This document shows positions 1-23,150 of a DNA stretch of 64,000 nucleotides, in pieces. The notes beneath the pieces are model-generated. The model saw only the letters and a list, made by a program, of their open reading frames with translations, was not told the DNA's origin and made no database searches. The stretch is from an uncultured Gammaproteobacteria bacterium (lineage in GTDB: Bacteria; Patescibacteriota; Microgenomatia; Levybacterales; UBA12049). The stretch lies in NCBI GenBank assembly GCA_964521295.1, contig CAZFRF010000001.1, positions 850,066-914,065 of the forward strand, read 5' to 3'. Within the stretch, counting starts at the first letter, position 1; every line of letters starts with the position of its first letter. Both the position numbers and the translations under genes were made by a program.

Positions 1-3000
1 TATATCTTTCTTGATCTCTAGATCCACTGGAGACTTGAACTGTTCCATCATAATCTTCAATGGCTCTTCCAACAACCCTACTGCTTTTAGTCGCTTTCAT
101 TGCAACTCCAGGTACACTTGATGAAGTTAAGTAGTCATTAGTACGAATTGGACCATTTTCTAGGGACACTTTTACAACAACTCTTCCCGCGAGTCCAATT
201 GCTTGAGGATAGTGATCTTCAGGAATAGTTGAGTCTCCTAATACATCTCCATTTGGTCCAGTTGGAATTGTTGAAACAACTCCGATTAAGTTTTGATCAT
301 ATGGAGTAGTTGGCTTGACAACTTGATATTTAAATCTGGCATCAGAACTGGCAACTAAGCTAACTAAATCTCCAGGTTCCATGTCTTCCGTTCCTGGATA
401 ATACTCAGCTATATCAGTTGCAGATCCATTACAGTCATTAATATTTGAATCGGCTTGAGCACCGTTTGTGCCATGGCAAAACGCAAATGTGCCGGATACA
501 TTTTGGATATCTAGTTGTATATTTCCTTCAACATCGAGTCCGCCTGCACCAATTCCAACTTCGCCTCCATTATTATTGAGCCATAGTTTTGATGTGGTTC
601 CATTGAGTCTTGCCTGCAGCTCATTGTTATCAAATCCTACATTTTGGCCTCCAGTGTCTCCGATTATAAATGTTCCAGCATTGGATAAAGATACGTCTGG
701 ACCCCAAGTTATAGCCAGCTGAGCTCCAGGATTACTTGTTCCTATGCCTACATAGCCATTATTAGCAATAGTTAAAGCAACGTTACCTATTCCTGCTCGA
801 TATACGGTTGATAGTGAAGCGGCTGATTCACCTGATCCTCCGACTGCAAAAATATATGAATTTCCGTTTACAGTAACTAGTGTAGTTCCAATATAGGCTA
901 CGTTTTGAGGAAGTTGCGATTGTCCTGAGCTCGACCATGTGCCAGGATTACCTGAAGAATCTAAGGCAGTTTTGTATACAGCATTGCTTGATGTAACAGC
1001 GTTGTTATCTCCACTTCCAATAGAATAAATATAAGTTTTATCATTTAAGGTAACTATTTCTGTTCCACCTTCCTGTCTATTCATAGGTAATCCAGTCACT
1101 GAGCTAAATGTTCCTAAGGTACCGTTGGATGGATTAACAGCTGCTTTATACACAGTACTGCGTCCTTGGGAGTCTCCACCGCCCACATAATAAACATATG
1201 TACTACTTCCAATAGTTGCACTAACAGCTCCACCGCCACCTCGATTGGCAAGTAGAGGAGAAGTGGTAGAGAATGTTCCTAAGGTACCATTACTATTAAC
1301 AGTTGCTTTATAAACTGTAGATGTAGGATTGGTGTTTACAGCGGTTGAATTAAATCCTCCCATTGCGTAAATATAGGTTGTTCCTCCAACAGTTGCAGTT
1401 GTGACAGCTGGTTCAAGTCTGGTTGCAAGAATAGGAGAAGTTGTTGCAAAAGTTCCTGGATTACCATCACTGTTGCTAAGCGTTGCGTAATAAGCGGTTG
1501 ACTGAACTGAGCCACTTGATCCACCAATAAGATAAACATATGTACTTGATCCAATAGTTGCGGTTGTTGCGCCTCCTCCCCAGCGTATGCCTGGTAATGC
1601 ATTGGCGGTTGAACTAAATGTTCCTGCGTTACCAAAGGTTGCATCAACTCTGGATTTATAAACGGTAGAGAGGCTTGTTCCACCACTGTTTTGTCCCCCT
1701 AATGAGTAAATATAAGTTGTTCCGTTTACACTAGCGCTTGTGATTGAGCCAAAAGTATCATTTAGGGCTTGGGGTAATTGACTCTGATTTGCTGTTGAAA
1801 AACCATCTCCTATGTCTCCATTTCCTTCAGTTCCACCTGGTGAAACCATGAAATTTAATTTACTACCATTTAGTACATAGTTGCTAAAATTATTTGTTCC
1901 ACCGCTGTATGCTAAATTACCAGAAATAGAAGCTGATCCAGCAACATCAAGTTTTGCTTTTGGAGTTGTTGTTCCTAAGCCGAAATCACTATCTAAGATA
2001 TATGAACTATCTCCGCCCCAGGCAACTAAATGAACTTTTTTAGAACCAGTAATATATAAGTCTAAGGAACCGTTACCATTTGAGTCTGTGTTAAGAGTAA
2101 AGGCTTTGTTAGTTCCTGTCGTTGTGTCATAACCTTCAACTAAGGTTGGAGCCCCAGCGCCTACAGCTTTTATAGAAAGATACCCGGATGGTAGAGGATT
2201 GTTGATACCTACTTTACCTGCATTAGTGATAACGAATCTAGATGTTCCCGATGAGGAGGCTGCGAAGATGTCTTGATTTTCTATCTGATCAAGAATTGTT
2301 AAAGATTTGCCTGTCGTGCCTGCGGATAAGGCTCTTGTAACATAGAGTTCGGAAGTTGGGTTTGTGGTTCCCAGTCCAACTAGGCTATTTCCCGTCAATC
2401 TCAATACTTCTCTGAATGCGCTCTGATTATATCTTGTATTAAAGGTTAATGCAGAATCAATGCTGCCGTTACTAGAATCAGTAAGTAGAGCATTTATTGT
2501 TGCTGCTTCTCTTATTGTACTGCCATCATCTTCTAAATTAAATTCAAGTCTTGCTCCAATTCCATCCGCTGCGGTTCCGGTTGAAGACCTTGTTAGGTTA
2601 AGTACTGTAAGAGCAGTATTTGTCGACGCATCGTTATTAACTATTTCCATGATGCCTCCACCACCTATGCCATTGGGACTAGCGGTTCCCACACCAACTT
2701 CTCCTGCAAAATAATTATATGTTCCCGCATCTGAAGAATAGATAGAGTAAGGTGTATTAGTTTGTGTTCCAGCGGTTAAATCTCCGATATATACTCCATA
2801 AGTATTAGTAATTGTTCCAGAATTTCCAGATAGGGTTAATGATAAACCCCTTACTCCAGCAACCGTACCTGTGTCGCTATTGCCAATAGTGCCTCCAATA
2901 GCTATTAATGAACCAGTTGTGTTTTGAGTTGAAGCACTATGATTTTCAGCTGCAGCATCTAGTGCTAAATATTGTCCTGAACAAGCAACTGATGTGCAAA

Positions 3001-6000
3001 TGTTTTGCAAGAGAACTCGAGAGGTGGATTTACTTGTTGCATCTGTACCTTGGTTGTAAAAATATGTTCTATATATACTTGAGGGTGCTATTCCAACTCC
3101 AAGACTTCCGTTTACAAAGAGTCCATCACTTAAAGGTGTAAAAGTTGTGTTTGTAGCACCATTTGTAATGGTTGCATAGGTTGTTCCATTGTCCTTAAAA
3201 ATTACATCATCTCCAGCAGCGTCTAAAATGATATCTCCTGAAGAATCTAGAGTCATGTCTCCTGTAGAATTTAAGGTAAGAGTGGTAGTTGGTGAAATAG
3301 TTAACGATCCATCAGTTGTAATGTTGTCACCATTAACTGCTAAGTTGCCAACTAGAGTAAGGGCACCGGCTCCACTTAAGGTCATAGCAGTAGTTGTTCC
3401 TCCATACCATTTGAACTGTTGGCCAGTTGTACTTACGGTAGAGAACATTGTTCCAGATTCAATACCTAAAGTGTAGCCAGCAGCAGATCCACTTAGATCG
3501 TTATATAAAACAATTTTTACTCCAGAGCTATAATTTGTGAATGTTGGTGCGGCAACACCTGTGGTGTTAAAGTTAATTCTATCTGAAGTTATCGAAATAT
3601 CTCCACCACTTGGATTAATTGTTAAGTCTCCACCTGAGTTAGTAGTTAAATCTGCATAGTTTGTAGCAGATCCATTACTATCGTTATATGTTAGTCTTAG
3701 GTTAGTTCCACCAGATGAATTAATTTCTAAGGCTCTATCTGGAGCAGTTGTGCCTACGCCAATATTACCGTTTTGTAAAATTGTTAGCATGTTTTGCATG
3801 GTAATTGCTCCATCTGCGGCTCCTGCAGCATTTGATATATTAAAGCTCATGGTTCCAGTTGAGGGGCTAACGTTAATTTCGCCTCCATAATGAGCTGTGC
3901 TGCCTTGGCCAAATTTCCAACCACTGTTGTAATACGCATTAAAACCAACAGTTGGATTGGATGCGACTGTATATAGAGGGAATGATGATCCAAATTTTCC
4001 AAATGTATTTCCAGTTGCTTTTTCTATATCTAGAGCTACTTCTGGAGAAGTTGTGCCAATACCAACTTTTCCCGTAGAGCTTTCGATCATCATGTCTGCT
4101 GTTCCTGCAGCATTTGCTGCAAACCAAAGATTTTGCTGTGATCGAACAAAGACATCATATTGAGAGCTTCCTGTTATATAGGCGCCAGCTGTGCCAATAA
4201 TTCCAAACCAGCCCTTATCTGTTCCGACAGAATTTTTAAGTCCATAAAGAGTGTTAGTAGTAGCAGATGGTTGAGTTAAAGTAAGGTTATTGGTTACATC
4301 AACACTACTTGGAGTATAGATTTGTTGATTATTATATAAATATCTCCAATATCCTCCAGCTGGAATTCCGCTTGTAACTGTTCCTGCACCTGTATAGCCA
4401 TAACCGTCACCTGTATAGGTTATATGCATAGCAGCAGATCCTAAGGCTCCAGACTCACCAAGGGAGATATATGCTCCTTGAGATGTCCAGTTATCACCAG
4501 TGCTTAATGAATCTAAGACTAGTCTAGGTTGGGTTGCATCTGTGTCAGAAAGTACGTTATTTGCTGAGTTATATGTTCCTCCGATAGCATCAATGTTGCC
4601 AGTGACTGCAAGATTTGAAGAGGCGTCTAGTGTCATGCTTGTTGTAGTTCCTCGTCTGTCCCAGCTATATGCATCATAAGTATTAAAGACCATCGTGCTG
4701 CCTTTAACTCCAAGTCCATATGAATTTCCTGCTGTTGCGTCGGAGTATAAGAGAATTTGATATTCAGCAAATGTATCTAGGAATCCAGTAGCGACATTAT
4801 TTCCTAAAGTTAATTTTGCATCAGGAGTTGAATCTCCAATGCCCAATTTATTAGCAGAGTCATCCCAGAAGAAATTAGTATTGTCTTGTGAAAGAACTCC
4901 ACTAGTTCCAGCGAATACCACACTTCCTGGAGTCAAGGAGGTGTCGATTGATCCTAGATAGGTTGTGCCTGCAACTTCTAAATCACCTGTTACATAAAGA
5001 TCATCTCCTGCAAGGTCAACTATTCCTGGTGTTCCAGTTCCTATTTTTACTCCACCACCAGCTGCGTCTATTGTTAAATCACCAGATGAGGTAAGTGTAT
5101 TACCTGAAAGATTTAATGTTCCTGCTATGTCGTTTGATGTGCCATCAACATCTAGGTTACTTGATACATTTAGTGCCCCTGTTAAGGTTAACAATGCGCT
5201 AGTTCCAGCTAAGGTTGGTCCTGCGCTTCCTAATTTTATACTTCCTCTTGTTGTGTCAGACGAAGAATAAATACCCAAAGTATTGGCAACGTCAACGTCA
5301 GTTAAGAATGTGTCATCTCCAATCTTAAGCATTGATGTGCCTGCAGCTTTTCCATTGTCTGAAATATCTAGTCCAGTATCTGAGTAAATCCATCCTTCAG
5401 CTCCAATGGAATCAGTTACGAATAAATCATCTCCTGTTAAGCTAAATCCTGCTTGAGAAATAGTTTCTGATAAAGAGCCTACTAATAAGTCTCCATTTAC
5501 TGCTATATCTGCATCTATTAAAGATGCTCTGAGGGAAACTTGATCTATATATAGAGTACAAGCATTAGTTGGATTGTGATTATATATTTGAACAGCAGCA
5601 TGATAAGCATTTGCAGCTGATGTTACCTGTCCACTGTAATTATCCCAAGAGGTCGTAACTGCTCCAGAGTTTGAGTATATATCATTATAGCTTAGATAGT
5701 TTCCCCATTGGTCATACCAGATGACTCTTAAATAGAATCCATCTCCGCATGCTGTATCTACTTTTGCCCAAGTTGAGGCTGTATAGCCTGTGGAAGGGGA
5801 TACGGGTATCTTATATGAGGATATATTTTGTGACTGAGTATCTGAGCCAGTATTGGTTAAGTATAATCCCCATGCACCATCGTGATTTGCACTTTGATTA
5901 GCAATTCTTCCTCTTGTACCAGTTCCAGCTGAGTTCCAATTATCTGCTATACCTAATCCTCCAGCAAAGGTTTCGAAGCTTGGATTTGCGAGCATGTTTG

Positions 6001-9000
6001 TGTTATTGTATGGGGCAGGTATTGCTGAGTGAGATGCAACTGCAAAATCGTTTGCGGCATAAGTTAAGCCAGTAACATTTAAATTACCATCTACATCTAG
6101 ATTACTACCTATCTGGACAGATCCAGGCGTATAAATATTTTGAGTGTTATATGTATATCTCCAATATCCTCCAGCTGGAATACCAGATGTTACAGTTCCT
6201 GCGCCTGTATAGCCATAACCGTTACCAGTATAGGTAATATGCATAGACGCAGATCCTAGTGCTCCACCTTCTCCAATAGAGATATATGCCCCTTGAGCGG
6301 TCCAGTCATCTCCAGTGCCGACTGAGTCTAAAACGAGGTAGGGTTGACTTGCGTTAGCGGTATTACTTATATTGCCAATATTTGTAATATTTCCTGTTGT
6401 GTCTATAGCCCAATCAGATGTAGTTATTGCTCCTGTTTCTCCACCATCACCAAGAGTAAAGATTCCATTTGCATCCAGGGTTCCATTAGCGGTTAGAGTT
6501 CCAGTTGATGTTAATCCTCCTGCGCCAACAGAAACTAGGCCTCCTTCTGCATTAAGGAATAGTGTACTTGCTGTAGTTCCTGCAGTTCTAGCCATAATTT
6601 CATTACCATCCATTGTGATGTTGTCACCAGCAGTGTCGCCAAGAATTAATGCGCCTGAAAGGGCAGTTGCTAATGAAGAATCTCCAGTATTATTTAATAC
6701 AACTTGTCCACCACTTGGATCAATAGTTAAATCTCCACCTGAGTTGGTAGTTAAATCTGCATAGTTTGTAGCAGATCCATTACTATCATTATATGTTAGT
6801 CTTAAATTTGTTCCACCAGATGAATTAATCTCTAAGGCTCTATCTGGAGCAGTTGTTCCAATACCAACATTACCACCTATAGGATTAAGAGATAGCGCTC
6901 TTTGAGTTGAGCCATTTTCAACAGATTGAATCCAGGAGTACATTGTAGATGTATTGTCTACTCCCATTGCCAATCTCATTGCTGTTGTACTTCCTGTAAT
7001 TAGGGAACTACCTAATTCTCCTGCTGGAGTAGTTGATCCACCAGCAACGTGTAATTTAGTTAATGGTCCTGTTGTGCTAATGCCTACATTTCCAGCGAAA
7101 TAGTTTTGATCAGTAGAGCTATTGTAAATAGAGTATGTGCCTGTTGGAATTGAGGTAGAGCCAATTACTAAGTTCGATTGATTTGTTCCCGTAGCTTCTC
7201 CAATTAAGATACCTGCATTATTAGTTCCGGTAGTTAAGCCTCCAACTTGAATACCCATTTGATTCGTTAGGGTTCCAGTTACAGTACCATTATTTATTCC
7301 ATAATTAATACCATTGGTAACAGTGTGTCCTGTTGCTGAATCGATTCTACTCCAAAGTCCATATGCATTTGTGGTAGTCCCTCCGTTACCAGCTCCTGTT
7401 ACTAATGATAGTAGGCCAATTAAATTTGCTTGCGTTCCAGTTGTATGAGTAGCTCCTGTGTTAAGTCTTAAATTTTGTTTTAAGCCTGTATCTGCAGCTG
7501 AGTAATTAATAGTAGAGTATATACCAAATTGCTCAGTTGCTGTGGCTGAGCCCCAAGTCTTAGCAACAGAAAGTCTAGTTGTAGATCCAGGAGCAGCAGT
7601 ACCAATTCCTAAAGAATCATTCGTGTCATCATAGAATAGGCTGGCATTATCCTGTGAAAGAACTCCGCTTGTTCCAGCAAAAACAACGCTTCCTGGTGTA
7701 AGTGCAGTATCAATTCCACCGTCTGTATATAAAACTCCATCGACTTCTAAGTCTCCTTCAACAAACAAGTCATCGTCTCCAGTAGCAGTTCCAGGAGTTG
7801 CAGTATCTCCAACTCTAACATATGAAGTCCCATTAAGTGTAAATGCGGCACCAGTAGTCATTGAAGTTAGAGATGAGGCAGTAATGCCGGTTGTGCCAGA
7901 GAAAGTAAGGCCTGTATTTGTTAAAGTTGTGGTTGCACCAAGAGTAAGTCTACTAGTTCCTGCTGAGTCTAAGATATCATTGCCGTTTACTCTAAAATCG
8001 TCTGCAATCGTAAGTGCTCCTGCATTAGTCAAGCTCATGTAGCTAGTAAGCGCACCGAGGCTTGTTCCAAATCCGAATCTAGCAACTGTTCCTGTAGTAT
8101 CAGTCCATATGCCAAAGTTTCCAGTACCATCTGCTAATCCAATTCCGCCTCCATATGATCCTGAAGCTGTTAATGCAAATGTATCGATGCCATTACTTGG
8201 GTTTGTAGCAGAGGTAATACCAGTAATTTGACCAACTTGTGTTGTACCACCAACACTTAGATAGTTTCCACTTCCTATCACTACATTAGAGCCACTTGGA
8301 TTAATGGTTAAATCTCCGCCTGAATTAGTAGTTAAATCTGCATAGTTAGTTGCAGAACCATTGTTATCATTGTATGTAAGTCTTAGATTATTTCCAGTTG
8401 CTGAATTAATTTCTAAAGCTCTATCAGGTGCTGTTGTGCCGATACCGACATTACCATTGCCCTTTACTGTTAGAAGGTGGGTGAGAGCGGTTCCAGGAGC
8501 ACTTGATATTGGCGTTCCTAAGACTCCAAATACTCCTTGGTTTACATCGTCAGCGCCCAAATATATTGCTCCGGCAGAGGTAATACCTCCGTTATTTGAT
8601 CTCAAATAAACTTCATTAGCTGCTCCTACTGCATTTTGAACATTTACTCCTATTACCTTAGCAGCATATCCAACACCTGTATTTACATCTCTACTGTTTA
8701 GGATATATAAATCAGATTCAGTTACTGATCCACCTTGCAGATTTGTTATGAAATCACCGGTGCCACCAGCACCAGAGGTTCCAGTAACTTGAAATTTTGC
8801 AGTGGGATTAGTAGTTCCAATTCCGACTCTTCCATTCCCTGCAATTGTCATAGCGTTTGTAAGTCCTGCGTCTCCGCCGGGAGATGTTTGAAAATCGAGT
8901 CTAGAACCGTTAAGAATATCTATTGTTTGATTAGAGGCAGACTGAAAGACTAAGCTTCCTGATATTGAAGCGTCACCTGTTGTTGCATTAAAGTTAATAT

Positions 9001-12000
9001 TTGAATTTGTATCAGGAGTTGAGTTTGTAGCATTATTTGCTGGATTGCTTGATCCAAAAATACTGAGCCATGTGCCAGTTTTTACAGCTAAAGTGGAATT
9101 AGCTATACCTAAAGCGAATGAATTTGACCAAAGTCCTACCTTCCAGCCTAAGTTTGTTCCTACTGTAAGTGGAGAACCGGTAATTGTGGTATTTCCATTT
9201 GCAGCAATATATCCATTATTGTTAATTAATCCGCCTGTCCCGTTATTTGGTAAGAGAGTAATATTTCCAGTAGTACTTCCTCCAATAGTTAAGGTATTTT
9301 GATCATAGGATTGAATAGATCTACTGGCTCCTTCTAGAACTAAGTTTCCAGAAACTGAAGCAGAGCCATCTAGTCCTAATAAATTGTTTTGATCCATTCT
9401 GATTCCAAAATTTCCATTACTTGACCAAGCTGACGCATAAGTTTGAGATGTAGGAATTTCCTCTAACATGAATCCATCAAAAAGAGCAGTTGTACTTGCA
9501 CAGTTTGCATCTACCCTAATAATTACTGCAGTTGATCCTGAATTAGAGGTAAAGGTGTTGCTAAGTCTAGTCCATGACGAGGTATCTGCTGTTCCTCCTG
9601 CTGATCTATGAGTCCCATCGCTTTCTCTTACATACATTTCTACGCTACAAGTCGTACCCGCAGAAAGCTTAGAATACACAGAAAAAGCATATTTTGTACT
9701 TGGTTTAATTGGTATGTTGTAGCTAGTTGAGGATGTTCCATTTAGGTAAGCATATCCGTCTGTAGCTGATCCATTGGTACTAACTGCTACGCTTCTTGTT
9801 CCGTCATATGCATCTGCGGTACTAATGGTAACTGAAGTTACATTTACATTTCTAGCTGAAGGAATATTTGTTCCATCTACACCTGTTTCCCAAGATGCAT
9901 ATTGATAAGGAAGAATATTTTTACCGGCAATTATTCCAGATGCACCAAGTCCACCAGATATATTTACAAATCCTGAACCATTACTTGGAGATAAATTAAT
10001 ATTTCCAGTAGTGCTTCCACCAATGGTTAAGGTATTGTTTCTAACAGATTGCAATGATCCATTTCCAGATAGATAGATACCTTTTGTTGCATCTGATCCT
10101 GCAGTTGCTGAAACAGATGCTATTGGTGTTAGTGTTCCTGCTATATTTAATACTGCAAACTGTGCAGAACTTGTTGAATTACCTCCAACTAGTAAATCCA
10201 TGGTGTTATTAATTGGAGTTAAAGCTTTACCATCAGTAGAGGTTGTCCACCAGTTAGTGCCTAATGCGCAATTTACCCAGGATGCAGTTGCTCCGCCAGC
10301 TATACATTGAGATCCTGTTCCATAATTTAATCCATTAGATCCAAGAGAAATTCCACCAGCTCTAGTTATGGTAAAGACTGGAGTGCCTGATGCTGAAGCG
10401 GTGAAAATATCCTGATTTTCAATCTGATCAAAAATAGAGAGAGCTTTACCTGTTGCTCCAGAGGCAAGTGGCCTGCTTACATATAGTTGAGATGTTGGTA
10501 CTGTATTACCAACTCCAAGTCCAACTAAACCAGTATTGGTGATAGTAAGTCTAGTATTTGATCCCTGATAGATTCTAAAATCATCTTGATAAGCATCTAA
10601 GTTATAGGCATTAACTGTGGTATCGTAATCGGCTGCGGTGTATAGAATAACTTCTCCTCCTTCAGAGCTTCCTGTTCCATTACCATAAGCGTGAAATAAT
10701 CCTCCAGTAGTATCATTGACACCAGCATATATATTGCCATTTTGTGAGGTAAAGGCTCCTGATGTTATTAAATCTCCGCCACTAGGATTAATTGATAAAT
10801 CTCCACCTGAATTTGTAACTAAATCTGCATAGTTAGTTGCAGAACCATTGTTATCATTGTATGTTAATCTTAAATTAACTCCAGTTGCTGAGTTAATTTC
10901 TAAGGCTCTATCTGGGCCAGTTGTGCCTATGCCAACATTGCCTGCGCTAGGGAAATACATAGCAGTTGAGCCATTAACATTGATACTTAACGGATCATTA
11001 GCACTAGTTATGAATGCAGAATTGTTTCCTTGTCCAAAATCAAAATTTCCAGTAGTGTTTTCTGTTCTTACATAATTATTTGAAGTATCTCCTCCATGTA
11101 ACCAAAGACCTTGATTGTTCCCTGAAGCAAGATATTGCTGCATTGCTCCTCCTTGAACATTTAATTTTGAAGTTCCAGGATTAGTTGTGCCTATGCCAAC
11201 ATTGCCATTCCCTGCAATTGTCATAGCGTTTGTTAGTCCCGCATCACCGCCAGGAGAGACTTGAAAATCAAGCCTAGAACCGTTAAGTATATCTATTGAT
11301 TTATTTGATCCATTAAATACAAGACTACCTGATGTAGAAGCGTCACCATTAATGTCAAGTTTGGCAGTAGGTGTGGTGGTATTTATTCCTAAATTTCCAC
11401 TTGTATCAAATCTCGCAATTTCTGAATTGTTAAGGAAGAAGCTGACAGGATTATTTGTAATGGTTCCAATAACTAATTTCGCATTGTTATTATCCCAATA
11501 AAATCTTCCAGTATTTGTGCCTGTAGAATTTGCTACCAAGAATCCTGATCCACCAGAGCTTGTATTGACTACTCTCGCATATATAGGATTTGTACTTGAT
11601 CCAGAGATATCAAGTGGTTCTGTTGGGCTTGATGTTCCAATTCCAACATTACCGTTTCCATTCCTAGGCATTAAAGCTATATTCCCAGTAGTACTTCCTC
11701 CAATGGTTAAGGTATTGTTTCTAACAGATTGCAATGATCCATTTCCAGATAGATAGATACCTTTTGTTGCATCTGATCCTGCAGTTGCTGAAACAGATGC
11801 TATTGGTGTTAGTGTTCCTGCTATATTTAATACTGCAAACTGTGCAGAACTTGTTGAATTACCTCCAACTAGTAAATCCATGGTGTTATTAATTGGAGTT
11901 AAAGCTTTACCATCAGTAGAGGTTGTCCACCAGTTAGTGCCAAGAGCACCAGCCGCGCAAGTAGATAAAATGTTTGAACCATCATAACAGAGTGGATTGG

Positions 12001-15000
12001 AGGCTCCTGAGTTTAATGTTCCAATTGCTAATTTATCATCTGTTTTAAGAGTATCAGCTGCTGATCTGTATAAATTAGTATCTCTAGAAGCACCAAAAGC
12101 AATTCCATTGGCAGCATCAGTATTATCAGCACCAGATGATAACCAAAGAACTTGAGTATCAGCGCCTGCTATTGTTATTCCGTAATCATTAGTATCTCCT
12201 CCTGTTTGATCTTGAATATATAGACCATGATTGTTGACGATGGTGCCTGTCGAAGTAGGGTTTTGAATATGGATACCATATGCGTTAGTAATTGTAGCCG
12301 TGGCATTAGATGCTGATATAAGAGATGTTATTCCATAACAGTTTGTTATTGTTGTCCCTGCGCTAGCAGCTTGGCATTGTGACCATATGCCATATGTATT
12401 TGTAAATGTTTCAGATAGGCCACTAGACTGTAATCCTCTTGCCCAAATTCCATAAGTAGTATCTGCATCTTGTGAATCAAAATATCCTCCGTATCCAGTA
12501 ACGATTCCATTTGAAGCGTAATCTCCATTTTCATAGGATTGAGCATATATTCCTCGGCTTGTCGTTATGGTTGCGCCGTCAGTTGTGGCATAGGAAATGA
12601 ATCTACCACCGTCATTGTTAGTTACAGTACCACCCGCATTACTGTTTTGGGCAATACCATATATGCCCATATTACTTGTTACTGTTCCTGCGGCATTCAA
12701 ATTTGCAATTCCATATGTGCCGGCCGAAGTAGTTGCTGTATTACCAAAGGAAGAGAGAGTGGAGGAGCTTATTAAGGAATATCCTTGAGTTCCATAAGAA
12801 GTGTCAATTGTGTAGCCATTGTTTAATTGCGATACGTTATATCCTGCGATTGCAGTATGTGAGAACATATCGTCACTTGCAGTGGTAGTTACATAATTAT
12901 ATAGTCCATAATCTGTTCTATTTGCGTTAATAGTTCCAGTTATGGTTCGTTGAACTGTGCCTGTATATGTTTTTGCGTTAATATCTGAATTTGAATCATT
13001 TATGTCAAAAAGTCTATCTGTTCTCGCAATAGTTCCATTGCCAAGTGCTAGGGTTGGGGCAAGAGCGTTTCCGTTTGAATCTACTTGGAAAAGGTCTCCA
13101 TTTCCAACTACAAATAGCTTAGAAGGAGTGGAATCTCCAATTCCTACGTTTCCACCGTTTGGTTGAAGTAAGAGATATGATGTTGTTTTAGTAGCGTGTG
13201 ATGTTCCTTCAAGAGTAAGATTTCCATTAGCAGCAGTGTCTCCATAAACTGTTCCTGCACCATTTCTAGGCATTAACCAAATATTTCCAGTAGTATTTCC
13301 ACCGAGAGTTAAATTGTTATTAGTTGTAGTCTGAATGCTTCTTGCTCCGCCTGATAGGGTAAGGTTTCCTGCAATTGATGCAGTCGAGCCAACCGTAAGG
13401 GTATCATCGATAGTTACATCGTTGTAGAATCTAGAATCTCCATTGTCATCAATTGCGAATGATGTCCCGCCTCTAATTTGGAAAACTATTCCGTTGGTTC
13501 CAGCTGAAGGAGCAGTATTGGATGAATCCGTAGTGGCATTAATTATTAAGCTTTTAGCATTGTTAGTTGCTGAATAGCTTGTTAAAAAGTTGCCTCCAGC
13601 AGTACCGCCAATTCCAACATTTTGAGTTGTGCTTCTGCCGATATTGGCAACATCAGTAATGTCTCTAAAGGCTGATAATAAGGAAATTGGGGTGGTTGTG
13701 CCAATTCCAACATAGCCTGAGTTGTTAAGAGGGGAGAGGATTATATTCCCAGTAGTATTTCCGCCTATGGTGAGTTGTTGGTTGGCAGTAGATTGAATTT
13801 GAGCAGTGCCATTTCTGAAAGTAAATTGTCCGCCGACAGACGCTGCGCCGTCTACATCCAATATTGCAGTGGGAGAAGTGGTTCCAATTCCCAATCTACC
13901 ATTTGGTGTAATTCTCATTTGCTCTGATCCACCAAGCTTCCAGGTTAGGGTAGGTGCAGATGCGCCTGTGATTTCTTGCTCAATTATATTAGTAGCCTCT
14001 GTAAAGTTGTATTGAAAAATTGGCAGATTTGATCCACCTGCTCTTTGTAATCTAAATAATGTACCATCTCCAGTACTATTTACTTGGAGTCTAGCAAGAG
14101 GGTTAGTAGTTCCAATTCCTACATTGCCACCTGCACCATTTTTTGGCATTACAATTAAATTTCCGGCAACAGTTGCAGTTGCTGGTCCTGTTCCATTTAA
14201 GCCTAGAACTGCGAATTTTGCAGTTGCTGTAGCTGTTCCACCTAAAAGAAAGTCCATTGTTGAGTTAATTGGAGTTAAAGCTTTTCCATCAGAGGAGGTG
14301 GTCCACCAATCTGTTGGAAGTCCGCTCGCACAAGAACCCCAGGTGGGAGTTGTAGCTCCAGAAACTAAACAAAGTCCAGAGCTACCAGTTACTGCGCTTA
14401 AAGCTCCTGTTGCTGAATCAGCATATAAGACTCTATTGTTTCCGGTGAAGGAGGTAGTTAGCGTTCCTATTAAGGTTGCGGATCCTAACTGAAGCGTACC
14501 TGCTGAAGCATAAATATCATGATTTCCAGATCCACTAAACCTAAGATCTGCTCCGGTTCCACTTAATACTATGCCTGTTGCTCCACCTACTGAAATATCA
14601 CCTGAATTTGTTTGGTTTCCACCGTTATCTACGGTAAATACTGGCGCTCCAGAAACGGAAGCGCTAATTACTGGACCTGTAGAATTTTGATTTACTGTGA
14701 ATGCCGATTGTCCAGATGAGGTAGCGAGAATTGCAAACTGATCATTAACTTCAACTGCTCCTGCTGCTGTAAAAGCTCCTGCTGCTGATCTAATATTGGT
14801 AGAAAGAGTATTGTTTTGTAAAGGTTTTTGGACATCAATTTTACCAGTGCCATTTGGACTAATGACTACATTTGAATTACTAGAGTCATTAGTTGTTAAA
14901 AGTAATGGTTGACCTGAAAGCTTAAATTGTCCGCCGCTTGCTGAGAAAGCAGGTGAGGCTGATCCACCAATTGTTAGGTTTCCGGATGAGTCTAGGGCTA

Positions 15001-16582: not shown

Positions 16583-17114
16583 TTTAATTGTGACTCTTAA
16601 TATTTAAAAAAGAGTAGGCAGGCACGAGATTATACAGATTATACGCATTATACTCTTGTGAAAAAGAAAATTTACTCATACTATTAGAATAGAAAAAAAT
16701 GAATTTTCAAGTCAATGACCTAGAGTAAAGATCCATAAGATATTTTGATATAGTTTAATATATTCTAGAAAAAATGAATTTCACGGGAAAAATGGTGCAT
16801 TTGTTGAGCATTTAGTTGAAGTAGGGGGTTATAGGTCAAATTTTATATATTTCAAAATATAACAAAGTATAACATTGATTTTGTAATTCTAAATTGTTGT
16901 CCTAATGCTTTCCTAAATATTGATTAAGAAATTAATTAAATATTATGCCTGAAAGGTATTATTTTAGCAGACATTGTCTTTTACTGATAAGATAAATTTA
17001 TAATAGTTTTAGATTGTTAAATCAATAAAAATAACTTTATATTGCAGGTTATATTTATTAATTAGCTTCGAGCTTGTATTTAATATTATTTTCTATGTAC
17101 AATAAGTGTAAGTA

Positions 17115-18014
17115 ATGAAGACTCTGCCCAGAATTGTACTTATTTTTTCTTTTCTTCTTTTGTTCTTAGCAAAGGGAAGCTCAGTTTTTGCTCAACAAGC
17201 AGTTCCTTTGGTTGCCCCAAGGCCAGGAGCATCCTCAACAACAGTATCGGGGACAATAGGAAATTATTACATTACTCTTAAGGGTTATATTGCTCCTTTT
17301 GCTTCCATAGTTTTATACGGATCTGATGGTGCTTTTCTAAAAGCAGTTGTTACAGACTCAAAAGGATATTTTACAGTCACAGATTTATTAGTTAAGAAAG
17401 GTTTTTCTAAGGTTTGTTTTGATGCAATTGACTTTAAAAGACTAGGTGAATCATATTCTTGTCTTACTTTTTCGCCTATTGAGGGACCACGAACAATTGA
17501 TGGTATTTTTCTACCACCAACCCTTGGTTTATCTAGATCAGAGATAGCAGCTGGTTCCTCAGCTATTGCTTGGGGTTATTCTATGCCATATGCAATTGTA
17601 ACTGTGCACGTTGGTAATGTTGTCTATTCAACTACTGCAGATTCTAATGGATATTATCAAATTGAGCTTAAAAACGTAAAAGCTGGAGTATATTCTTTAT
17701 ACTCAACTGCGGAATTAAATGCAAAACCTTCGCTAGATCCTCAAAAAAGAGTACAGCTAAAAGCTTTGTCATGGTGGGAGCAGTTTATTGCTTGGATAAT
17801 GCAGCTTCTTAAAAAGATTTGGGTATTCTTAACTTCATTTACCATAACACCGTTTTGGATTGCTATACCAGTCTTTATCCTCATTATTATACTAATTTTA
17901 AAGATCTGGCCTGAGAAATTTACCATTCTTTATCACAATAGATTAGTAATCTTTTTTACCAAACTCTTTAGAAGACATAAGCCTCTTCATCACGAATACT
18001 TCATGGGTTATTAA
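17115..18014 (+). CDS. Secreted, C-terminally membrane-anchored protein with two carboxypeptidase-regulatory-like / Ig-like beta-sandwich segments
   Basis: N-terminal signal peptide MKTLPRIVLIFSFLLLFLAKGSSVFA. C-terminal TM IPVFILIIILILKIW. Motifs 'TVHVGNVVYSTTADSNGYYQIELKNVKAGVYSLYST' and 'IVLYGSDGAFLKAVVTDSKGYFTV' fit CarboxypepD_reg-like patterns. Confidence 0.55.
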   Translation: MKTLPRIVLIFSFLLLFLAKGSSVFAQQAVPLVAPRPGASSTTVSGTIGNYYITLKGYIAPFASIVLYGSDGAFLKAVVTDSKGYFTVTDLLVKKGFSKVCFDAIDFKRLGESYSCLTFSPIEGPRTIDGIFLPPTLGLSRSEIAAGSSAIAWGYSMPYAIVTVHVGNVVYSTTADSNGYYQIELKNVKAGVYSLYSTAELNAKPSLDPQKRVQLKALSWWEQFIAWIMQLLKKIWVFLTSFTITPFWIAIPVFILIIILILKIWPEKFTILYHNRLVIFFTKLFRRHKPLHHEYFMGY

Positions 18015-18029
18015 TTTAAACTTACTGTT

Positions 18030-19478
18030 TTAGAAATTTGCAGTTGCTACGTAGGTAAAGGTTGTCGAGTAGATTCCAGCTGGTGCAGTAGGTGAGATTG
18101 TTGCTCCATACTCAACGCTAGTTATGCTTACCGCTGAAGGTACGCTAGTTGACGCTAGTAGGCCATGAAAACCACTTATGCCTAAATTCCAAGGATTAGC
18201 ATATTTGTTGCTTGCGCCTCCTCCAGAACCCCAGCCTGTTGGTATTGTTGGACTAGTTGTGCTTCCGGAGCCTATACAAGGATGAATGCCAAAAGCATTA
18301 GTACCAGGAGTTATCGCTGCTGGAGCAGGATTTGTGCCATTAGTTGAGTCGTTTCCAGCTAGCCCTAGTCCGTTATTACCAGTATTGGCATCGGGCAAGA
18401 AGATTCCACTGCCTGGGTTAATAAAATGGCCTGAGGAAGTGGCTGTTAGGGTATATCCATATGAGGCGTTGGTATCAATTTGAATGTTTTGAGCGGAAAC
18501 ATTTCTTTTTCCGCTAGTAAGGCTTCCTAAATTAACAAATGTGGCTGTTGAATCAAGTCCAGGTCCAGGATTAGTAGTATCACCACAGATACTAGCACCG
18601 TTTGCTATTCCCGAAATGGTCATTGTCATATATGGTTCAATAGTGCCTTGAATTTGTACAGATTCAATAATTCCAGCAATTGCAGTTGTCGTATCTTGAT
18701 CTACCCCAGAATTATCTTGAGTTTTAACCACAATTTTCCATTGATCTGCAGTACCTGAAATATTGCTACTCTTAATCGGGTTAATAAGCATAGGTTTAAA
18801 AGAAGTACAGACTCCGCTAGAATTTGTTAAGCAGCCAACCTCAACCGTAACTGTAGCTCCGGCGCTAATACCAGAACCGTTTAAGGTGCAATCCATTGTT
18901 GAGCCGCTAATATTCCAGCTTGAGCAGGTAGCGTTATCGGTTTGGATTTCTGAGGAAGAGATGTTATTAAAGGAAAAGCCTGTTGCAGAGGGTGAAGCAG
19001 AGTTGCTGCCTGAGCCTGGAAAAGTTAAAACAATATGGCCTCCGCCTACAACTGAAGCTGATGTTGTAAATTTGATAGTGTGAGTCGCAGTAATTGGGGT
19101 AATTAAAGTTTCACCAGCTGTATGTGCTGTTGTGGTGCTGCCAGTAAAAAAGACAATTCTTTGATTAGAAGATGGGGTATTGGCGGCTGACATCGAAGCA
19201 ACATTTAGTCTATCTGTAGGATTGCCTAGGTTATTTAAGAATCTGGCAGAATCTGATGATATCCATAATGCCGAATTATACCCACTAATTGGTAAGTCAG
19301 TAACAATTACTTGGCCAACCCCGGAAGATATTCCTGTGGCTACTGGAGCCGCTGCAGAGGGCCTAGAAGTAGATAATTGAACGGAAACGTTAGTAAGTGC
19401 AGCATTGGTTTTAGGAGCAAAAAATAAGCCTAAGGAAAGGAGAAGAATAATAACAGACAGTATTTTTTTTATACTCAT
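18030..19478 (-). CDS. Secreted Ser/Thr/Gly/Asn-rich surface protein with a C-terminal WxL-like (YxL/YxA variant) domain; paralog of 20613..22055
   Basis: Signal peptide MSIKKILSVIILLLSLGLFFAPKTNA. Shares long blocks with the 480-aa paralog (LSTSRPSAAAP...NVASMSAANTPS...). 'IQIDTNASYGYTLTATSSG' and the C-terminus '...PAGIYSTTFTYVATANF' resemble the two WxL-domain motifs, with Tyr or Phe in place of Trp. Confidence 0.55.
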   Translation of the reverse strand: MSIKKILSVIILLLSLGLFFAPKTNAALTNVSVQLSTSRPSAAAPVATGISSGVGQVIVTDLPISGYNSALWISSDSARFLNNLGNPTDRLNVASMSAANTPSSNQRIVFFTGSTTTAHTAGETLITPITATHTIKFTTSASVVGGGHIVLTFPGSGSNSASPSATGFSFNNISSSEIQTDNATCSSWNISGSTMDCTLNGSGISAGATVTVEVGCLTNSSGVCTSFKPMLINPIKSSNISGTADQWKIVVKTQDNSGVDQDTTTAIAGIIESVQIQGTIEPYMTMTISGIANGASICGDTTNPGPGLDSTATFVNLGSLTSGKRNVSAQNIQIDTNASYGYTLTATSSGHFINPGSGIFLPDANTGNNGLGLAGNDSTNGTNPAPAAITPGTNAFGIHPCIGSGSTTSPTIPTGWGSGGGASNKYANPWNLGISGFHGLLASTSVPSAVSITSVEYGATISPTAPAGIYSTTFTYVATANF

Positions 19479-19569
19479 GTAAATAAAATAAGTGCTACTA
19501 TTACTATCTGATTTTTAAAATCAATTGTCAAGGTTTTTTGGGCTTAATTTAGATTCAAAACTGAAGATT

Positions 19570-20559
19570 TTAAGCAGTTGTTGTATTTCCGCCCTCATCA
19601 TGACTTACCTGAGGCTGATTTACTTGATGATCAGGGTTTTTGCGCTGATTTTTTCTCTTTTTGTAATATTTTGCCCCTAGGATTACCGCTATTACGATAA
19701 GAATAATTATTATCGTAAGTCTCCAAGGGAAAACCCAGAATGTTAAAGAAGAAACGAGTGGGAGATTGCCATTTTGTCCATATGAGGCAGTTAGTTGAGC
19801 TTTATATGGTCCAAACATTAACATGCTACCAAATCTATTTGTAAAATCCCTGGTGGCTTCTGGGAAAATGTTGTGAGTTGGTAGATTTTGTGACTCATTA
19901 AAGAAAAGACCCGTTACTTTAACAGTTCCTTTTGGTGCGATATGCAGATCTCCTAAGTTTCTAATTTGCGTTAAGACGTCAACTGGTCCATATTCATGTA
20001 AAAAGTTAGTAAAGAATTTAAATACTGAAGCTGATTCTTTAACTGGTCCATTGATTGTGACATAAAAAAGGGAACCTATTTGAGTATTTACCACACCACC
20101 GGTTGCATTATCTACGCCTTCAACTCTTGGTTTGGTAACAATTGCTGCGTAGTGTCCACCTGGTTTAGCATAGGATGGGATTTGAACATAATAGTTTACA
20201 ACCTGAGTTTGACCTGGTTTTAGAGTAAATTGAGAAGGTGAGACTCCAATCCAGGCTGCAGCAGAATATTTATTACTTAAGGAGTTGGGAGGAAGTATTT
20301 GAGGTGTGCCTTGGGTATCTGAAACGATATAGTCTTGAACGCTGATATCAAAAGTTAATGGGGCATTGCTTTGGTTTACCACCTTAGTTGTGCCTTGTTT
20401 GTATCCTCCTGGATCAAGTTTTACGTCAATTGTAGGATTAACAACCGTAAATGTTCTTTGTAGCTCTTGAGCAGTAGCAACGCTAATTACGCTAAACACA
20501 AAAACTAACGTTGTAGCTATCAATAATCTTTTCTTTAATTGTAAATTGGGCAGTTTCAT
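19570..20559 (-). CDS. Signal-peptide protein with a C-terminal TM anchor and a basic tail (DUF916/CscA-like topology); paralog of 22135..23145
   Basis: N-terminal signal MKLPNLQLKKRLLIATTLVFVFSVISVATAQE. C-terminal 'LTIIIILIVIAVILGAKYYKKRKNQRK'. The 'TFTVVNPTIDVKLDPGG...VVNQSNAPLTFDISVQDY' block resembles DUF916-type surface proteins of WxL loci. Confidence 0.5.
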   Translation of the reverse strand: MKLPNLQLKKRLLIATTLVFVFSVISVATAQELQRTFTVVNPTIDVKLDPGGYKQGTTKVVNQSNAPLTFDISVQDYIVSDTQGTPQILPPNSLSNKYSAAAWIGVSPSQFTLKPGQTQVVNYYVQIPSYAKPGGHYAAIVTKPRVEGVDNATGGVVNTQIGSLFYVTINGPVKESASVFKFFTNFLHEYGPVDVLTQIRNLGDLHIAPKGTVKVTGLFFNESQNLPTHNIFPEATRDFTNRFGSMLMFGPYKAQLTASYGQNGNLPLVSSLTFWVFPWRLTIIIILIVIAVILGAKYYKKRKNQRKNPDHQVNQPQVSHDEGGNTTTA

Positions 20560-20612
20560 ATTTTTTAACTAATTTACATTATGAGCATTTTATTTTAAGG
20601 TTGTCAATTGCC

Positions 20613-22055: not shown

Positions 22056-22134
22056 TTAAATAAATGCTACTATTAATATGTATGGTTTTTGCGTATAAGT
22101 CAAGTGGTAATCTGAGGGATAAGTATACCTTGGT

Positions 22135-23145
22135 TTAGTTAGTATATTTTTTAACTCTTAAGAGTATAAAGACGAGTATAATTATTAATAAAACTATACC
22201 TATTAAGTAGTTGATGGGGAAGGCAAAGAAGGTTATAGTTTTGGAAAGTGTTTGTGATTTATCATCAAGATTAATAGTAAGTGTGGCTGTGTATGGTCCA
22301 AGTAAAAATTTTTCAGGCCAGATAGCTACGGGAATATTTTCTTCCTCTAGTAATGCATTAGCTGCTGCGTATTCCTTTGAATCTGGGTTTTGTTGTTTTA
22401 AATCAGGAATAAGTCTTTCTGAGTTAGAAAGGATATTAACTGGTAGTAAGTCAATTCTGCCAATTGTTTGATTAAACATGTTTTTAATAACTATCTTTCC
22501 TTGTGGAGTAATAAAATGGTCACTTTTATTAACTACGTTAACGGTAAAGGGTACTGGGCCACTATCTTTAAAAAATGCAGTCTCAAATTCCTTAATGTAT
22601 CCATTTGTTGCGCCTTTTGGTCCGACAGTAAGTAAGACATTCATTGCAATTGCTGCTGTAGCTAAAGAAGAATTAGCTAGGTTGGTGTTGTTATTTTTTG
22701 ATACAAAAAGAATACTAAAGTAATAGTCTCCTTTTTCTTCGTTCGCCGGAACCTGAAGGACAAGTTGTAGCTTTTTGCCTTGCTTAGGAGCTAGGGTAAT
22801 ACTTTTCACAGCTTCGCCCTCATCTAGGATTTTAATTCTATTCGCAAATAGAGGGTCTGGAAAAGCGGAAAAAGTATCTTGAATTTGTAGTTGACCGTCT
22901 TTACTTTGAGCCGGAGCAAAGGGCTTAATAACTATATTTAAATCTACACTCGAATCAGTATTGTTTTCCAAGAAGATATCGCCTTTAGGCTCAGCAGGAG
23001 GTGTGGAGTCGATCTGCATAATTGGAGGATATATGCCTAAAGACACTTCTTGGGCCATGATGTTTTTTACAAGACCAATATTTGAAGCTAAAATTAGCAG
23101 TATTAATATCCAAGTGCTAAGTATAATTATTTTTTTTAGTATCAT
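22135..23145 (-). CDS. Signal-peptide protein with a C-terminal TM anchor (DUF916/CscA-like topology); paralog of 19570..20559
   Basis: N-terminal hydrophobic signal. C-terminal 'LIGIVLLIIILVFILLRVKKYTN'. Same size class and layout as the 329-aa protein. Confidence 0.5.
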   Translation of the reverse strand: MILKKIIILSTWILILLILASNIGLVKNIMAQEVSLGIYPPIMQIDSTPPAEPKGDIFLENNTDSSVDLNIVIKPFAPAQSKDGQLQIQDTFSAFPDPLFANRIKILDEGEAVKSITLAPKQGKKLQLVLQVPANEEKGDYYFSILFVSKNNNTNLANSSLATAAIAMNVLLTVGPKGATNGYIKEFETAFFKDSGPVPFTVNVVNKSDHFITPQGKIVIKNMFNQTIGRIDLLPVNILSNSERLIPDLKQQNPDSKEYAAANALLEEENIPVAIWPEKFLLGPYTATLTINLDDKSQTLSKTITFFAFPINYLIGIVLLIIILVFILLRVKKYTN

Positions 23146-23150
23146 ATTTT

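Follow-up and report, generated by a model that had tools for sequence, protein, structure and literature searches.

The giant fibre gene

The window (the whole 64-kb stretch of DNA that was analysed) carries on its minus strand a single stop-free frame, window 2-16603, which encodes both inserts described below. The peptides quoted for them in an earlier interpretation made from the letters alone (the sequence-only reading) were both recovered in this frame. Its translation is identical across 5,527 aa to the NCBI protein P0052 (6,048 aa), encoded on a 935,984-bp contig. The start codon lies at window 16582 (-); of 6048 codons in all, 1-5527 fall within the window, and the gene ends (3') past its left edge. 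Residue numbers of the window 2-16603 translation are the P0052 numbers plus 7. The features are listed in the direction of translation, with the evidence in brackets.

1..16582 (-), giant gene for a putative membrane-anchored, tail-fibre-like surface protein (frame, identity to P0052, homologues)
15968..16570 (-), two N-terminal tyrosine-recombinase-type SAM-like (core-binding) domains (Pfam, NCBIfam)
15458..15550 (-), main hydrophobic segment, read as membrane anchor (Kyte-Doolittle scan)
9959..10267 (-), fibre repeat unit immediately upstream of insert 1 (near-exact duplicate of window 11639-11947)
9455..9895, approximately (-), insert 1, CBM_4_9 (CenC-like) beta-sandwich module (Pfam, AlphaFold, Foldseek)
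codons 9647-9649 and 9500-9502 (-), Cys pair of insert 1, P0052 C2312 and C2361 (Cys pairing pattern)
6005..9454 (-), tail-fibre-like repeats between the inserts (self-comparison)
5525..6004, approximately (-), insert 2, divergent second CBM_4_9-type module (Pfam, AF2, Foldseek, phmmer)
codons 5747-5749 and 5558-5560 (-), Cys pair of insert 2, P0052 C3612 and C3675 (alignment, Cys pairing)
734..1786 (-), Kelch-like repeat region of about six TYIY..GG...STVYK units near the distal fibre end (Pfam Kelch_1, translation)

At the N-terminus of the giant protein, Pfam detected Phage_int_SAM_1 (69.9 bits), SAM_4 (36.7) and SAM_5 (27.3), and the NCBIfam XerC/XerD models align solely through their N-terminal ~100 positions. 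The catalytic domain of a tyrosine recombinase is absent beside these SAM-like domains, which are predicted to be cytoplasmic. A Kyte-Doolittle scan of P0052 gave residues 345-375 as the strongest segment (maximum 2.23), a second, weaker hydrophobic stretch at 248-269 (1.78) and no hydrophobic segment past residue 375. Segment 345-375 is read as a single transmembrane anchor. It is preceded by the basic stretch RFTRPNWYKRYH, whose position on the N-side indicates an N-in, C-out topology, with the small N-terminal domain in the cytoplasm and ~5,650 residues probably outside the cell. For extracellular placement we counted this dominant anchor with its basic N-side, the paired cysteines throughout P0052 (all 18 are grouped in 9 close pairs, each module having one) and the VKOR and DsbA-like genes also present in the window.

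Kelch-like repeats are discernible in the translation, and the region, when excised, reached 24.9 bits with Pfam Kelch_1 (cut-off 20.1). Over the C-terminal 755 aa of P0052, K1-lyase_C remained sub-threshold (23 bits vs. a cut-off of 27). A Pfam-type scan of the same 755 aa gave no match to Peptidase_S74, unlike in the homologues P0010, P0012, P0016, P0063, P0069 and P0088, where this domain is present. Altogether, 51 giant homologues of the fibre were found in Patescibacteria/Levybacteria. The family plan appears to comprise an N-terminal domain in the cytoplasm, a single transmembrane helix and tail-fibre-like repeats. The Patescibacteria origin of the homologues and the LeuRS gene of the window, with 70-76% identity to Levyibacteriota MAGs, point to a Levybacteria (Patescibacteria/CPR) organism.

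Two modules interrupt the fibre repeats

The segment between the inserts consists of dense internal repeats, with motifs of the GNVGIGTT.P type and NYADL..NSGGDL units, for which no Pfam or PHROG family was matched. When the whole protein was compared with itself by BLAST in sliding 60-aa segments, almost all regions outside the inserts matched other internal repeats. The inserts matched only each other (2266-2326 vs. 3574-3626, E 9e-6 to 3e-5), so the repeat pattern is broken there, in agreement with the sequence-only reading.

Insert 1 comprises residues ~2237-2383 of the window 2-16603 translation, with a Pfam core at 9506-9835 and a profile envelope (9419-9925) that includes the conserved linkers KNILP..YASWE and EEIP..Q..SAW. 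Insert 2 (residues ~3534-3693, envelope 5486-6034, Pfam core 5585-5998) is ~25% identical to insert 1. Its Cys pair (AC.GDGF ... NA.CT) is kept in all five aligned type-2 modules (P0052, P0016, P0077, P0079, P0088), and the pair of insert 1 is not conserved in P0014 or P0010 in the alignment. Both C2312-C2361 and C3612-C3675 are presumed disulfides.

The repeat units at 9959-10267 and 11639-11947 share 283 of 309 nt; ~92 aa are identical and the sequences diverge afterwards, the copy at 11639-11947 having no CBM module after it. Duplicated fibre units are thus present both with and without the module. Only 3-4 of the 51 fibre homologues contain a CBM module, and homology to module carriers ends 15-75 aa (type 1) or ~160 aa (type 2) beyond it. 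By these comparisons the modules appear as sporadic cassettes with short linkers in the Patescibacteria fibre family.

Fold and family assignment

Both inserts exceeded the gathering threshold of Pfam CBM_4_9 (PF02018, 25.9 bits). Insert 1 scored 41.3 bits (E 2.6e-10), and 34.6 bits within a 2,833-aa context. Insert 2 scored 29.5 bits (E 1.1e-6), 3.6 bits over the cut-off, as an isolated 180-aa segment only; it was not listed in the PF02018 scan of the 2,834-aa half-protein. The AF2 models predict for both a galactose-binding-domain-like beta-sandwich of 9-10 strands. That of insert 1 is all-beta with ten strands (pLDDT 83.6, pTM 0.82), and that of insert 2 is all-beta with a disordered N-terminal strand, at moderate confidence (pLDDT 69.9, pTM 0.70). 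The CBM4_9-type beta-sandwich proposed in the sequence-only reading is thereby supported for both inserts.

With both models Foldseek gave a probability of 1.00 to CBM16/22/4/61 at target-normalised TM-scores of 0.65-0.74, the top solved matches being sugar-bound CBM structures (CBM16 2zex/3oea, CBM22 4xup, CBM4-2 2y64, CBM61 2xom). The best PDB matches of insert 1 were CBM16, CBM22 and CBM4-2 (E 8e-9 to 1e-6); for insert 2 CBM16 was best (E 1.8e-9), together with CBM4-2 and the central fibre of mycobacteriophage Douge (E 1.5e-7). Structure prediction, which the same reading had put forward as a check, therefore places both models closest to CBM16, CBM22, CBM4-2 and CBM61, and no competing non-lectin fold emerged for either insert. 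The CBM22-type likeness claimed there holds by structure comparison but not by sequence, where the modules are closer to CBM4 and CBM16. A 5-sequence module profile, searched against 1.84 billion proteins, matched 3,884 of them at E<=1e-3; with the Pfam E-values, this puts the similarity well outside what chance would produce. A profile of the modules found CBM4-2 at E 1.5e-6 and CBM16 at E 4.7e-6, and no CBM22 at E<=0.01. Single-sequence matches of the inserts to characterised CBMs reached only E 0.01-0.1, e.g. CBM16 2zex for insert 2 (phmmer, E 0.01). Identity to any solved CBM is 12-24%, too low to assign the inserts to any one CAZy family; they belong to the Pfam superset and not to the CAZy families CBM4, CBM16 or CBM22. 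Their assignment as CenC-type (CBM_4_9) modules is sound, though ordinary.

Like the inserts, PF02018/CBM4 (R. marinus Xyn10A CBM4-2, 1k42), CBM16 (ManA CBM16-1, 2zex) and CBM22 (4xup, 1dyo) are beta-sandwiches of ~140-160 aa. The strand motifs common to CBM_4_9 and the inserts are an N-terminal (S/N)-(W/F)-E, I-P-x-x-P-x-T-x-Y, S-W-T and a terminal (Y/F)-x-D-x-(F/V). One alignment (A1) shows no variation at E13 and D150 (numbered as in insert 1), and a second (A2) none at D150; their columns align with NPGFE and YVDDV of CBM16. In many such CBMs the N-terminal Glu and C-terminal Asp of the CBM_4_9 strands ligate a structural Ca2+. The inserts differ from CAZy CBM4/16/22 in being fibre-embedded without an attached glycoside hydrolase, in having a Cys pair each, and in cleft residues that are equivalent in part only.

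The fold is common to GH16/PL7-type enzymes, and the alginate lyase 4q8k (E 0.0017) and the laminarinase 16A CBM4 module (1gui) were among the weak profile matches. It is nevertheless hardly conceivable that the inserts are small catalytic jelly-rolls, i.e. a GH16- or PL7-like glycanase or lyase. Modules of ~150 aa are too small for such domains, the GH16-type E-x-D-x-x-E motif was not seen on reading both insert sequences, and all top matches are non-catalytic CBMs, the 1gui match being to the CBM4 module and not to the catalytic domain.

Relatives in phage tail proteins

The best structural matches in BFVD were phage minor tail and CBM-cenC proteins (TM 0.79-0.80), closer than solved CBMs. 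Insert 1 shows 30-34% identity over 93% of the module to internal modules of Streptomyces phage minor tail proteins; its closest annotated relatives include those of TunaTartare gp43 (2,010 aa), Coruscant and Rhodococcus phage Trina. The modules of the Streptomyces phage proteins also lie inside a very long tail protein, but such minor tail proteins (TunaTartare gp43 etc.) are viral, have no membrane anchor and are functionally uncharacterised. Close relatives of the modules also occur in proteins ending in Peptidase_S74, the tail-fibre chaperone, and relatives of the module proteins are already named 'carbohydrate binding domain-containing protein'.

Furthermore, the module profile matches residues 216-320 of the Douge central fibre gp20 (E 6.8e-5), inside its N-terminal domain (165-321). 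This domain binds M. smegmatis cells, as well as LAM/AM and alpha-glucan fragments on arrays (PMC13033339). It is the best functional analogue of the inserts. Douge gp20 (PDB 8zdo/8zdp) shares with the Levybacteria fibre a CBM-fold module inside a long fibre; it is, however, an 878-aa trimeric phage baseplate fibre and part of the virion, whereas the Levybacteria fibre has 6,048 aa and is cellular and, by prediction, membrane-anchored.

These relatives, the tail-fibre-like repeats of the protein itself, and homologues that are named 'tail fiber domain-containing protein' or contain Peptidase_S74 would fit a gene for a phage, prophage or tailocin tail fibre with the modules as viral receptor-binding domains. 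We regard such an origin as very improbable. The protein has a cytoplasmic-type N-terminal domain and a membrane anchor, and dozens of Patescibacteria genomes encode proteins of this anchored architecture. The 5' (window-right) flank of the gene carries housekeeping genes (LeuRS, ComEA/ComEC, ArgRS, MreB, tRNAs). The remaining 47 kb of the window contain no genes for capsid, terminase or tail, and a PHROG search of the fibre shaft and C-terminus gave no match.

Conservation of cleft-aligned residues

The binding cleft of CBM4-2 has been tabulated as segments 67-78, 108-120 and 140-150 (PMC4302574 Table 1). We mapped it onto the modules from alignments of 15-25% identity, with a one-residue shift between methods. 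Conservation of cleft-aligned vs. scaffold columns was 0.42 vs. 0.54 in type 1 and 0.57 vs. 0.79 in type 2. Near-invariant among the cleft-aligned residues are nevertheless the aromatic and polar ones of D-G/N-Y-A-Y, S-Y-N-I-P and R..D in type 1, and of DQWGNY, IY.N and Y in type 2. Such a pattern would be expected of a conserved scaffold with putative specificity loops.

The lower conservation of the cleft columns, the least conserved part of the module, would also fit a CBM fold that has lost ancestral sugar binding and serves as structural knob, as spacer or for protein-protein contacts. Neither CBM4-2 F110, which aligns with Gly in insert 1, nor W69, which aligns with Gln in insert 2, is strictly matched, and the lower Foldseek matches of insert 2 include Cry toxin domains and FBG3, which have the same fold and non-glycan roles. 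We nevertheless consider loss of binding unlikely. The near-invariance of the cleft-aligned aromatic and polar residues extends across more than 20 divergent relatives, and the nearest experimentally studied fibre-embedded relative, that of Douge, binds glycans. Moreover, the fibre repeats already supply length, so that ligand binding explains the keeping of two divergent, discrete cassettes better than spacing does.

Possible role of the fibre

Glycan binding by the fibre through its inserts, as suggested in the sequence-only reading, would follow by analogy, and the analogy gains strength because the nearest fibre-embedded relatives (the Douge domain) bind host-surface glycans. We favour as the probable reading that the inserts are CenC-type glycan-binding cassettes in an anchored Levybacteria fibre acting as an adhesin, presumably toward a host. 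The shaft of this cell-surface fibre of 6,048 aa would have self-contained CBM_4_9 cassettes spliced into it, and the fibre's order outside the cell would be tail-fibre-like repeats with modules at ~37% and ~59% of the length, the Kelch-like region and the C-terminal domain. A loop-lined cleft on one sandwich face of each module, placed there by alignment, would most likely bind polysaccharide, modelled on the grip of related modules in phage tail fibres on host-surface glycans. If the modules bind as these relatives do, the fibre would serve for long-reach adhesion to the glycans that coat another cell, presumably a host on which this bacterium probably lives as an episymbiont. An episymbiotic habit of Levybacteria is what would be expected of CPR bacteria in general. 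No feature of the 64-kb window points to a specific glycan or host for the fibre.

The modules might instead bind the producer's own wall or envelope polysaccharide, an option already raised in the sequence-only reading, or environmental polysaccharide/EPS, and would then bend the fibre back to the producer surface or a substrate, or arrange it there. The ligands of solved CBM4/16/22 relatives are soluble chains of beta-glucan, mannan or xylan, and the window encodes two GH26-like + CBM96 proteins and, for wall synthesis, a WecG/TagA-type transferase and FemAB. We judge a target other than a host cell to be quite improbable, since the modules lie ~1,850 and ~3,150 residues past the anchor on tail-fibre-like repeats suited to outward reach, the proteins nearest to them in sequence and structure are receptor-binding or tail proteins of phages, directed at foreign cells, and the GH26 genes, 15-20 kb from the fibre gene on the opposite strand, show no genomic linkage.

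A more far-reaching version of the adhesin reading, which we offer only tentatively, is that the fibre is a cell-anchored phage receptor-binding fibre whose cassettes are exchanged with actinophage tail proteins, each for a different host glycan, and set host range. If this is true, the host specificity of an uncultured CPR lineage would become readable from the cassette sequences. To our knowledge, host recognition and holding by CPR/Patescibacteria is largely unknown apart from the type IV pili of Saccharibacteria.

The giant membrane proteins of Vampirococcus lugosii are very long, contain interaction domains and have been proposed to act in host or prey attachment (PMC8080830), and in giant proteins of Omnitrophota CBM35-like folds were found by structure prediction (bioRxiv 10.1101/2023.11.21.568195). 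As far as described in the parts of these accounts consulted, both share length, membrane association and CBM-like folds with the Levybacteria fibre but differ in repeat types and CBM families, and the Levybacteria fibre family and its CBM_4_9 cassettes do not appear in them.

By itself, a CBM_4_9 in a tail-fibre-like protein is a routine annotation, with thousands known. The two discrete, expressible, lectin-type modules of ~150 aa are concrete reagents toward the partner organism and the ligand.

Structure of the giant fibre protein

The giant fibre gene lies in one stop-free minus-strand frame at window positions 2-16603, which is still open at the left window edge. From its first Met at position 16582 the translation is identical at 5,527 of 5,527 comparable residues to P0052, a protein of 6,048 aa from an NCBI genome (935,984-bp contig), so that only the last 521 codons of the gene fall outside the window. 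The following features, all on the minus strand, were assigned to it.

15968-16570, minus strand: N-terminal pair of SAM-like (core-binding) domains of the tyrosine-recombinase type, catalytic domain absent (Pfam, NCBIfam)
15458-15550, minus strand: membrane anchor, one strong hydrophobic segment (P0052 residues 345-375) preceded by a basic stretch
~9455-9895, minus strand: insert 1, residues ~2237-2383 of the frame translation
~5525-6004, minus strand: insert 2, residues ~3534-3693 of the frame translation
~734-1786, minus strand: Kelch-like region near the distal fibre end, about 6 units TYIY..GG...STVYK (24.9 bits to Kelch_1 when this region is scanned separately)

A hydrophobic scan of P0052 past residue 375 showed no further segment. 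With this single anchor about 5,650 residues would be extracellular, in a presumable N-in/C-out topology; at a crude estimate, the fibre would then measure 0.5-1 micrometre. Gly, Thr, Ser, Asn and Ala are abundant in the extracellular portion. The cysteines of P0052, 18 in number, all occur in nine close pairs (e.g. 456/467, 738/751, 2312/2361, 3612/3675), of which each insert holds one, and the pair of insert 2 is kept in all five aligned modules of its type. This pattern suggests a systematic stapling of the fibre by putative disulfides. Genes for VKOR and a DsbA-like thioredoxin are present in the window, too (39704-40901). PHROGs contained no family for the fibre shaft, and the C-terminal 755 aa of P0052 matched no significant family in Pfam or PHROGs (a match to K1-lyase_C was sub-threshold).

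We found 51 homologues of the fibre, all giant (949-2,921 aa, many partial) and from Patescibacteria, chiefly Levybacteria. Their N-terminus is either SAM-like, as here, or carries a MerR-type helix-turn-helix in the same position. The attachment of a DNA-binding-type cytoplasmic domain to an extracellular fibre of more than 5,600 aa is an odd combination, and it may point to signalling or to a tethering of the nucleoid.

Two CBM_4_9 modules interrupt the fibre repeats

A sequence-only reading had proposed two jelly-roll inserts that break the repeat pattern of the fibre. Both peptides quoted there are found in the minus-strand translation and, in a sliding 60-aa self-BLAST, nearly all other extracellular sequence matched internal repeats, while the inserts matched each other only (41% identity over 34 aa, E 9e-6, at the I-P-x-x-P-S-T-x-Y strand region). 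The term inserts is supported by the flanking fibre units, which recur without a module. About 92 aa directly upstream of insert 1 (9959-10267, minus strand) are a near-exact duplicate of 11639-11947 (283 of 309 nt identical), and this second copy passes straight into an ordinary fibre repeat; only the downstream copy precedes insert 1. Insert 2 has a 'GAYISIGE...YWRY' unit upstream of it, and this unit returns about 600 residues further downstream, there lacking a module. The duplication next to insert 1 suggests that the repeats have recombined recently, or possibly that the assembly collapsed or expanded them.

Insert 1 matched Pfam CBM_4_9 (PF02018) with 41.3 bits (E 2.6e-10) and insert 2 with 29.5 bits (E 1.1e-6), the gathering score being 25.9. 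The match of insert 2 is borderline, as it was not reported in a scan of a 2,834-aa half-protein. The AlphaFold2 model of insert 1, computed from module homologues in a shallow alignment (7 rows), is all-beta (pLDDT 83.6, pTM 0.82); that of insert 2 is weaker (pLDDT 69.9, pTM 0.70), with a disordered first strand. In Foldseek searches of the PDB non-catalytic CBMs ranked first for both models, led by CBM16 (2zey/2zex; E 8e-9 for insert 1 and 2e-9 for insert 2, target TM 0.72-0.73) and followed by CBM22 (4xup, 2w5f), CBM4-2 (1k42, 2y64), CBM61 and a porphyran-binding CBM. No non-lectin fold competed, so the lectin-like fold expected from the earlier reading holds. A profile of five modules reached CBM4-2 (E 1.5e-6) and CBM16 (4.7e-6) by sequence alone. 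Of the proposed CBM4_9/CBM22 type, the first half is borne out by Pfam for both inserts and the second by structure only; identities of just 12-24% rule out an assignment to a particular CAZy family.

E-values, models and homologues exclude a chance or compositional artefact, and a catalytic jelly-roll was rejected as highly improbable. From NCBIfam came nothing beyond a sub-threshold match, which falls in the C-terminal part of Mep72. No PHROG matched insert 1 or the C-terminus. Insert 2 reached one PHROG only, labelled 'phosphodiesterase', and what aligns there is presumably a CBM-like module. We also considered a third CBM in the C-terminus beyond the window and dismissed it, as the only signal was a 2-bit stretch.

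Distribution and relatives of the modules

Among the 51 fibre homologues modules were detected only in P0014 and P0010 (type 1, resembling insert 1), in P0016 (type 2, resembling insert 2) and weakly in P0015. For type 1, P0052 and these carriers are similar up to 15-75 aa outside the module and no further; for type 2 the similarity is lost about 160 aa upstream. Since few homologues carry modules and the similarity ends shortly beyond them, the modules appear from these alignments to behave as mobile cassettes in otherwise divergent fibres.

When the module profile was run with HMMER against 1.84 billion representative proteins, 3,884 matched at E<=1e-3 and 584 at E<=1e-10; many of them contain 3-10 copies in tandem. 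Those with a name go under 'carbohydrate binding domain-containing protein' in Clostridia and Saccharibacteria and under 'tail fiber domain-containing protein' in Patescibacteria. The top-scoring single-copy relatives have the linkers of insert 1 (KNILP..YASWE, EEIP..Q..SAW) or insert 2 (S.IPATYNNTN..NPSFE, C-T-x-Y-x-D-Q), and several of them end in Peptidase_S74, a tail-fibre chaperone. A word-indexed homologue search with insert 1 or the five-sequence module alignment returned nothing, which reflects a limit of the index rather than absence, because P0014, P0010 and P0016 are in the collection and score 190-234 bits locally. A scan of genome contigs with the module alignment gave no confirmed locus.

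CenC-type modules are common in phage tail fibres among predicted viral structures, and there the model of insert 1 fitted best to phage 'minor tail', 'CBM-cenC domain-containing' and 'tip attachment J' proteins (TM 0.79-0.81). A tblastn search of 50,697 phage genomes located insert 1 in 16 Streptomyces phage records (30-34% identity, 93% of its length), where it lies in minor tail proteins; that of TunaTartare is 2,010 aa long and has the module at an internal position. Insert 2 gave one partial match, to a Rhizobium phage tail protein. Such relatives bring up the reading as a prophage tail fibre, which we consider very improbable: the SAM-like N-terminus, the anchor, the homologues in Patescibacteria and housekeeping flanks (LeuRS, ComEA/EC, ArgRS, MreB, tRNAs), with no phage structural genes found among the flanking genes scanned in the window, indicate that this is a cellular surface fibre.

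Candidate binding cleft and possible function

The binding cleft of CBM4-2 is formed by segments 67-78, 108-120 and 140-150 (PMC4302574, Table 1). Columns aligned to it, at 15-25% identity and with a one-residue shift between HMMER and MAFFT, place a candidate cleft on the modules. Their conservation is below that of the remaining module columns (0.42 vs 0.54 for type 1, 0.57 vs 0.79 for type 2). Near-invariant among them are, in type 1, the Tyr of D-G/N-Y-A-Y (94%), the Tyr of S-Y-N-I-P (78%) and an R...D pair (83% each), and in type 2 the Trp of DQW (80%), G-N-Y and I-Y-N. As far as alignments can tell, this would fit a conserved scaffold with variable specificity loops. A role without binding, structural or in protein contacts, seems unlikely to us. 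The CBM16 residues W20/W125/Q121, whose numbering in the literature appears to differ by 3 from the SEQRES index of the PDB, were not used.

The best experimentally grounded analogue is the N-terminal domain (165-321) of the central-fibre protein gp20 of mycobacteriophage Douge, within which our profile matches residues 216-320. This CBM-like domain binds M. smegmatis cells as well as arabinomannan and alpha-glucan fragments on arrays (PMC13033339). Beyond the observed gene, module boundaries, Pfam membership, predicted fold, relatives and chromosomal context, the modules would bind glycans on another cell and the fibre would serve as a long-reach adhesin. We regard glycan-binding adhesion to a foreign (host) surface as the probable role; that the ligand is instead a glycan of the own wall or an environmental polysaccharide is, in our judgement, quite improbable.

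Giant proteins of ultrasmall or predatory bacteria are already known to contain CBM-like folds (bioRxiv 10.1101/2023.11.21.568195), and giant surface proteins have been described in CPR (PMC8080830). As comparable folds, proteins and phage modules are known, the CBM_4_9 modules are a correct and useful annotation but no surprise. Being small, discrete and expressible, the two modules offer probes for the partner or ligand of this uncultured Levybacterium.

Genomic neighbourhood

The LeuRS of the window shows 70-76% identity to Levyibacteriota MAGs. Its best match (93%, CAZIOR010000009.1) belongs to a MAG labelled 'uncultured Gammaproteobacteria', and the next-best are all Levyibacteriota/Patescibacteria; judged from these matches, the label looks like a placeholder or misassignment. 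A DGR-targeted variable domain was rejected, since the ORFs scanned at 17115-54101, all of 150 aa or more, include no reverse transcriptase. Further genes of the window are as follows.

17115-18014, plus strand: 299-aa protein with signal peptide, sub-threshold CarboxypepD_reg/Big-like domain and C-terminal anchor, between the giant gene and the secreted cluster
18030-23900, minus strand: cluster of secreted proteins without Pfam matches, directly upstream of the giant gene, with the next three entries
18030-19478 and 20613-22055, minus strand: two paralogous ~480-aa secreted proteins
19570-20559 and 22135-23145, minus strand: two ~330-aa proteins with signal peptide and C-terminal anchor
within 18030-23900, minus strand: 249-aa protein
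31639-34086 and 34145-36658, plus strand: two tandem paralogues with a GH26-like region and C-terminal CBM96 (77 and 74.7 bits)
41516-42265, plus strand: sortase gene, adjoining tRNA-Arg

The secreted cluster may represent another surface assembly. The GH26-like/CBM96 pair stands as glycan-active proteins amid otherwise housekeeping genes.
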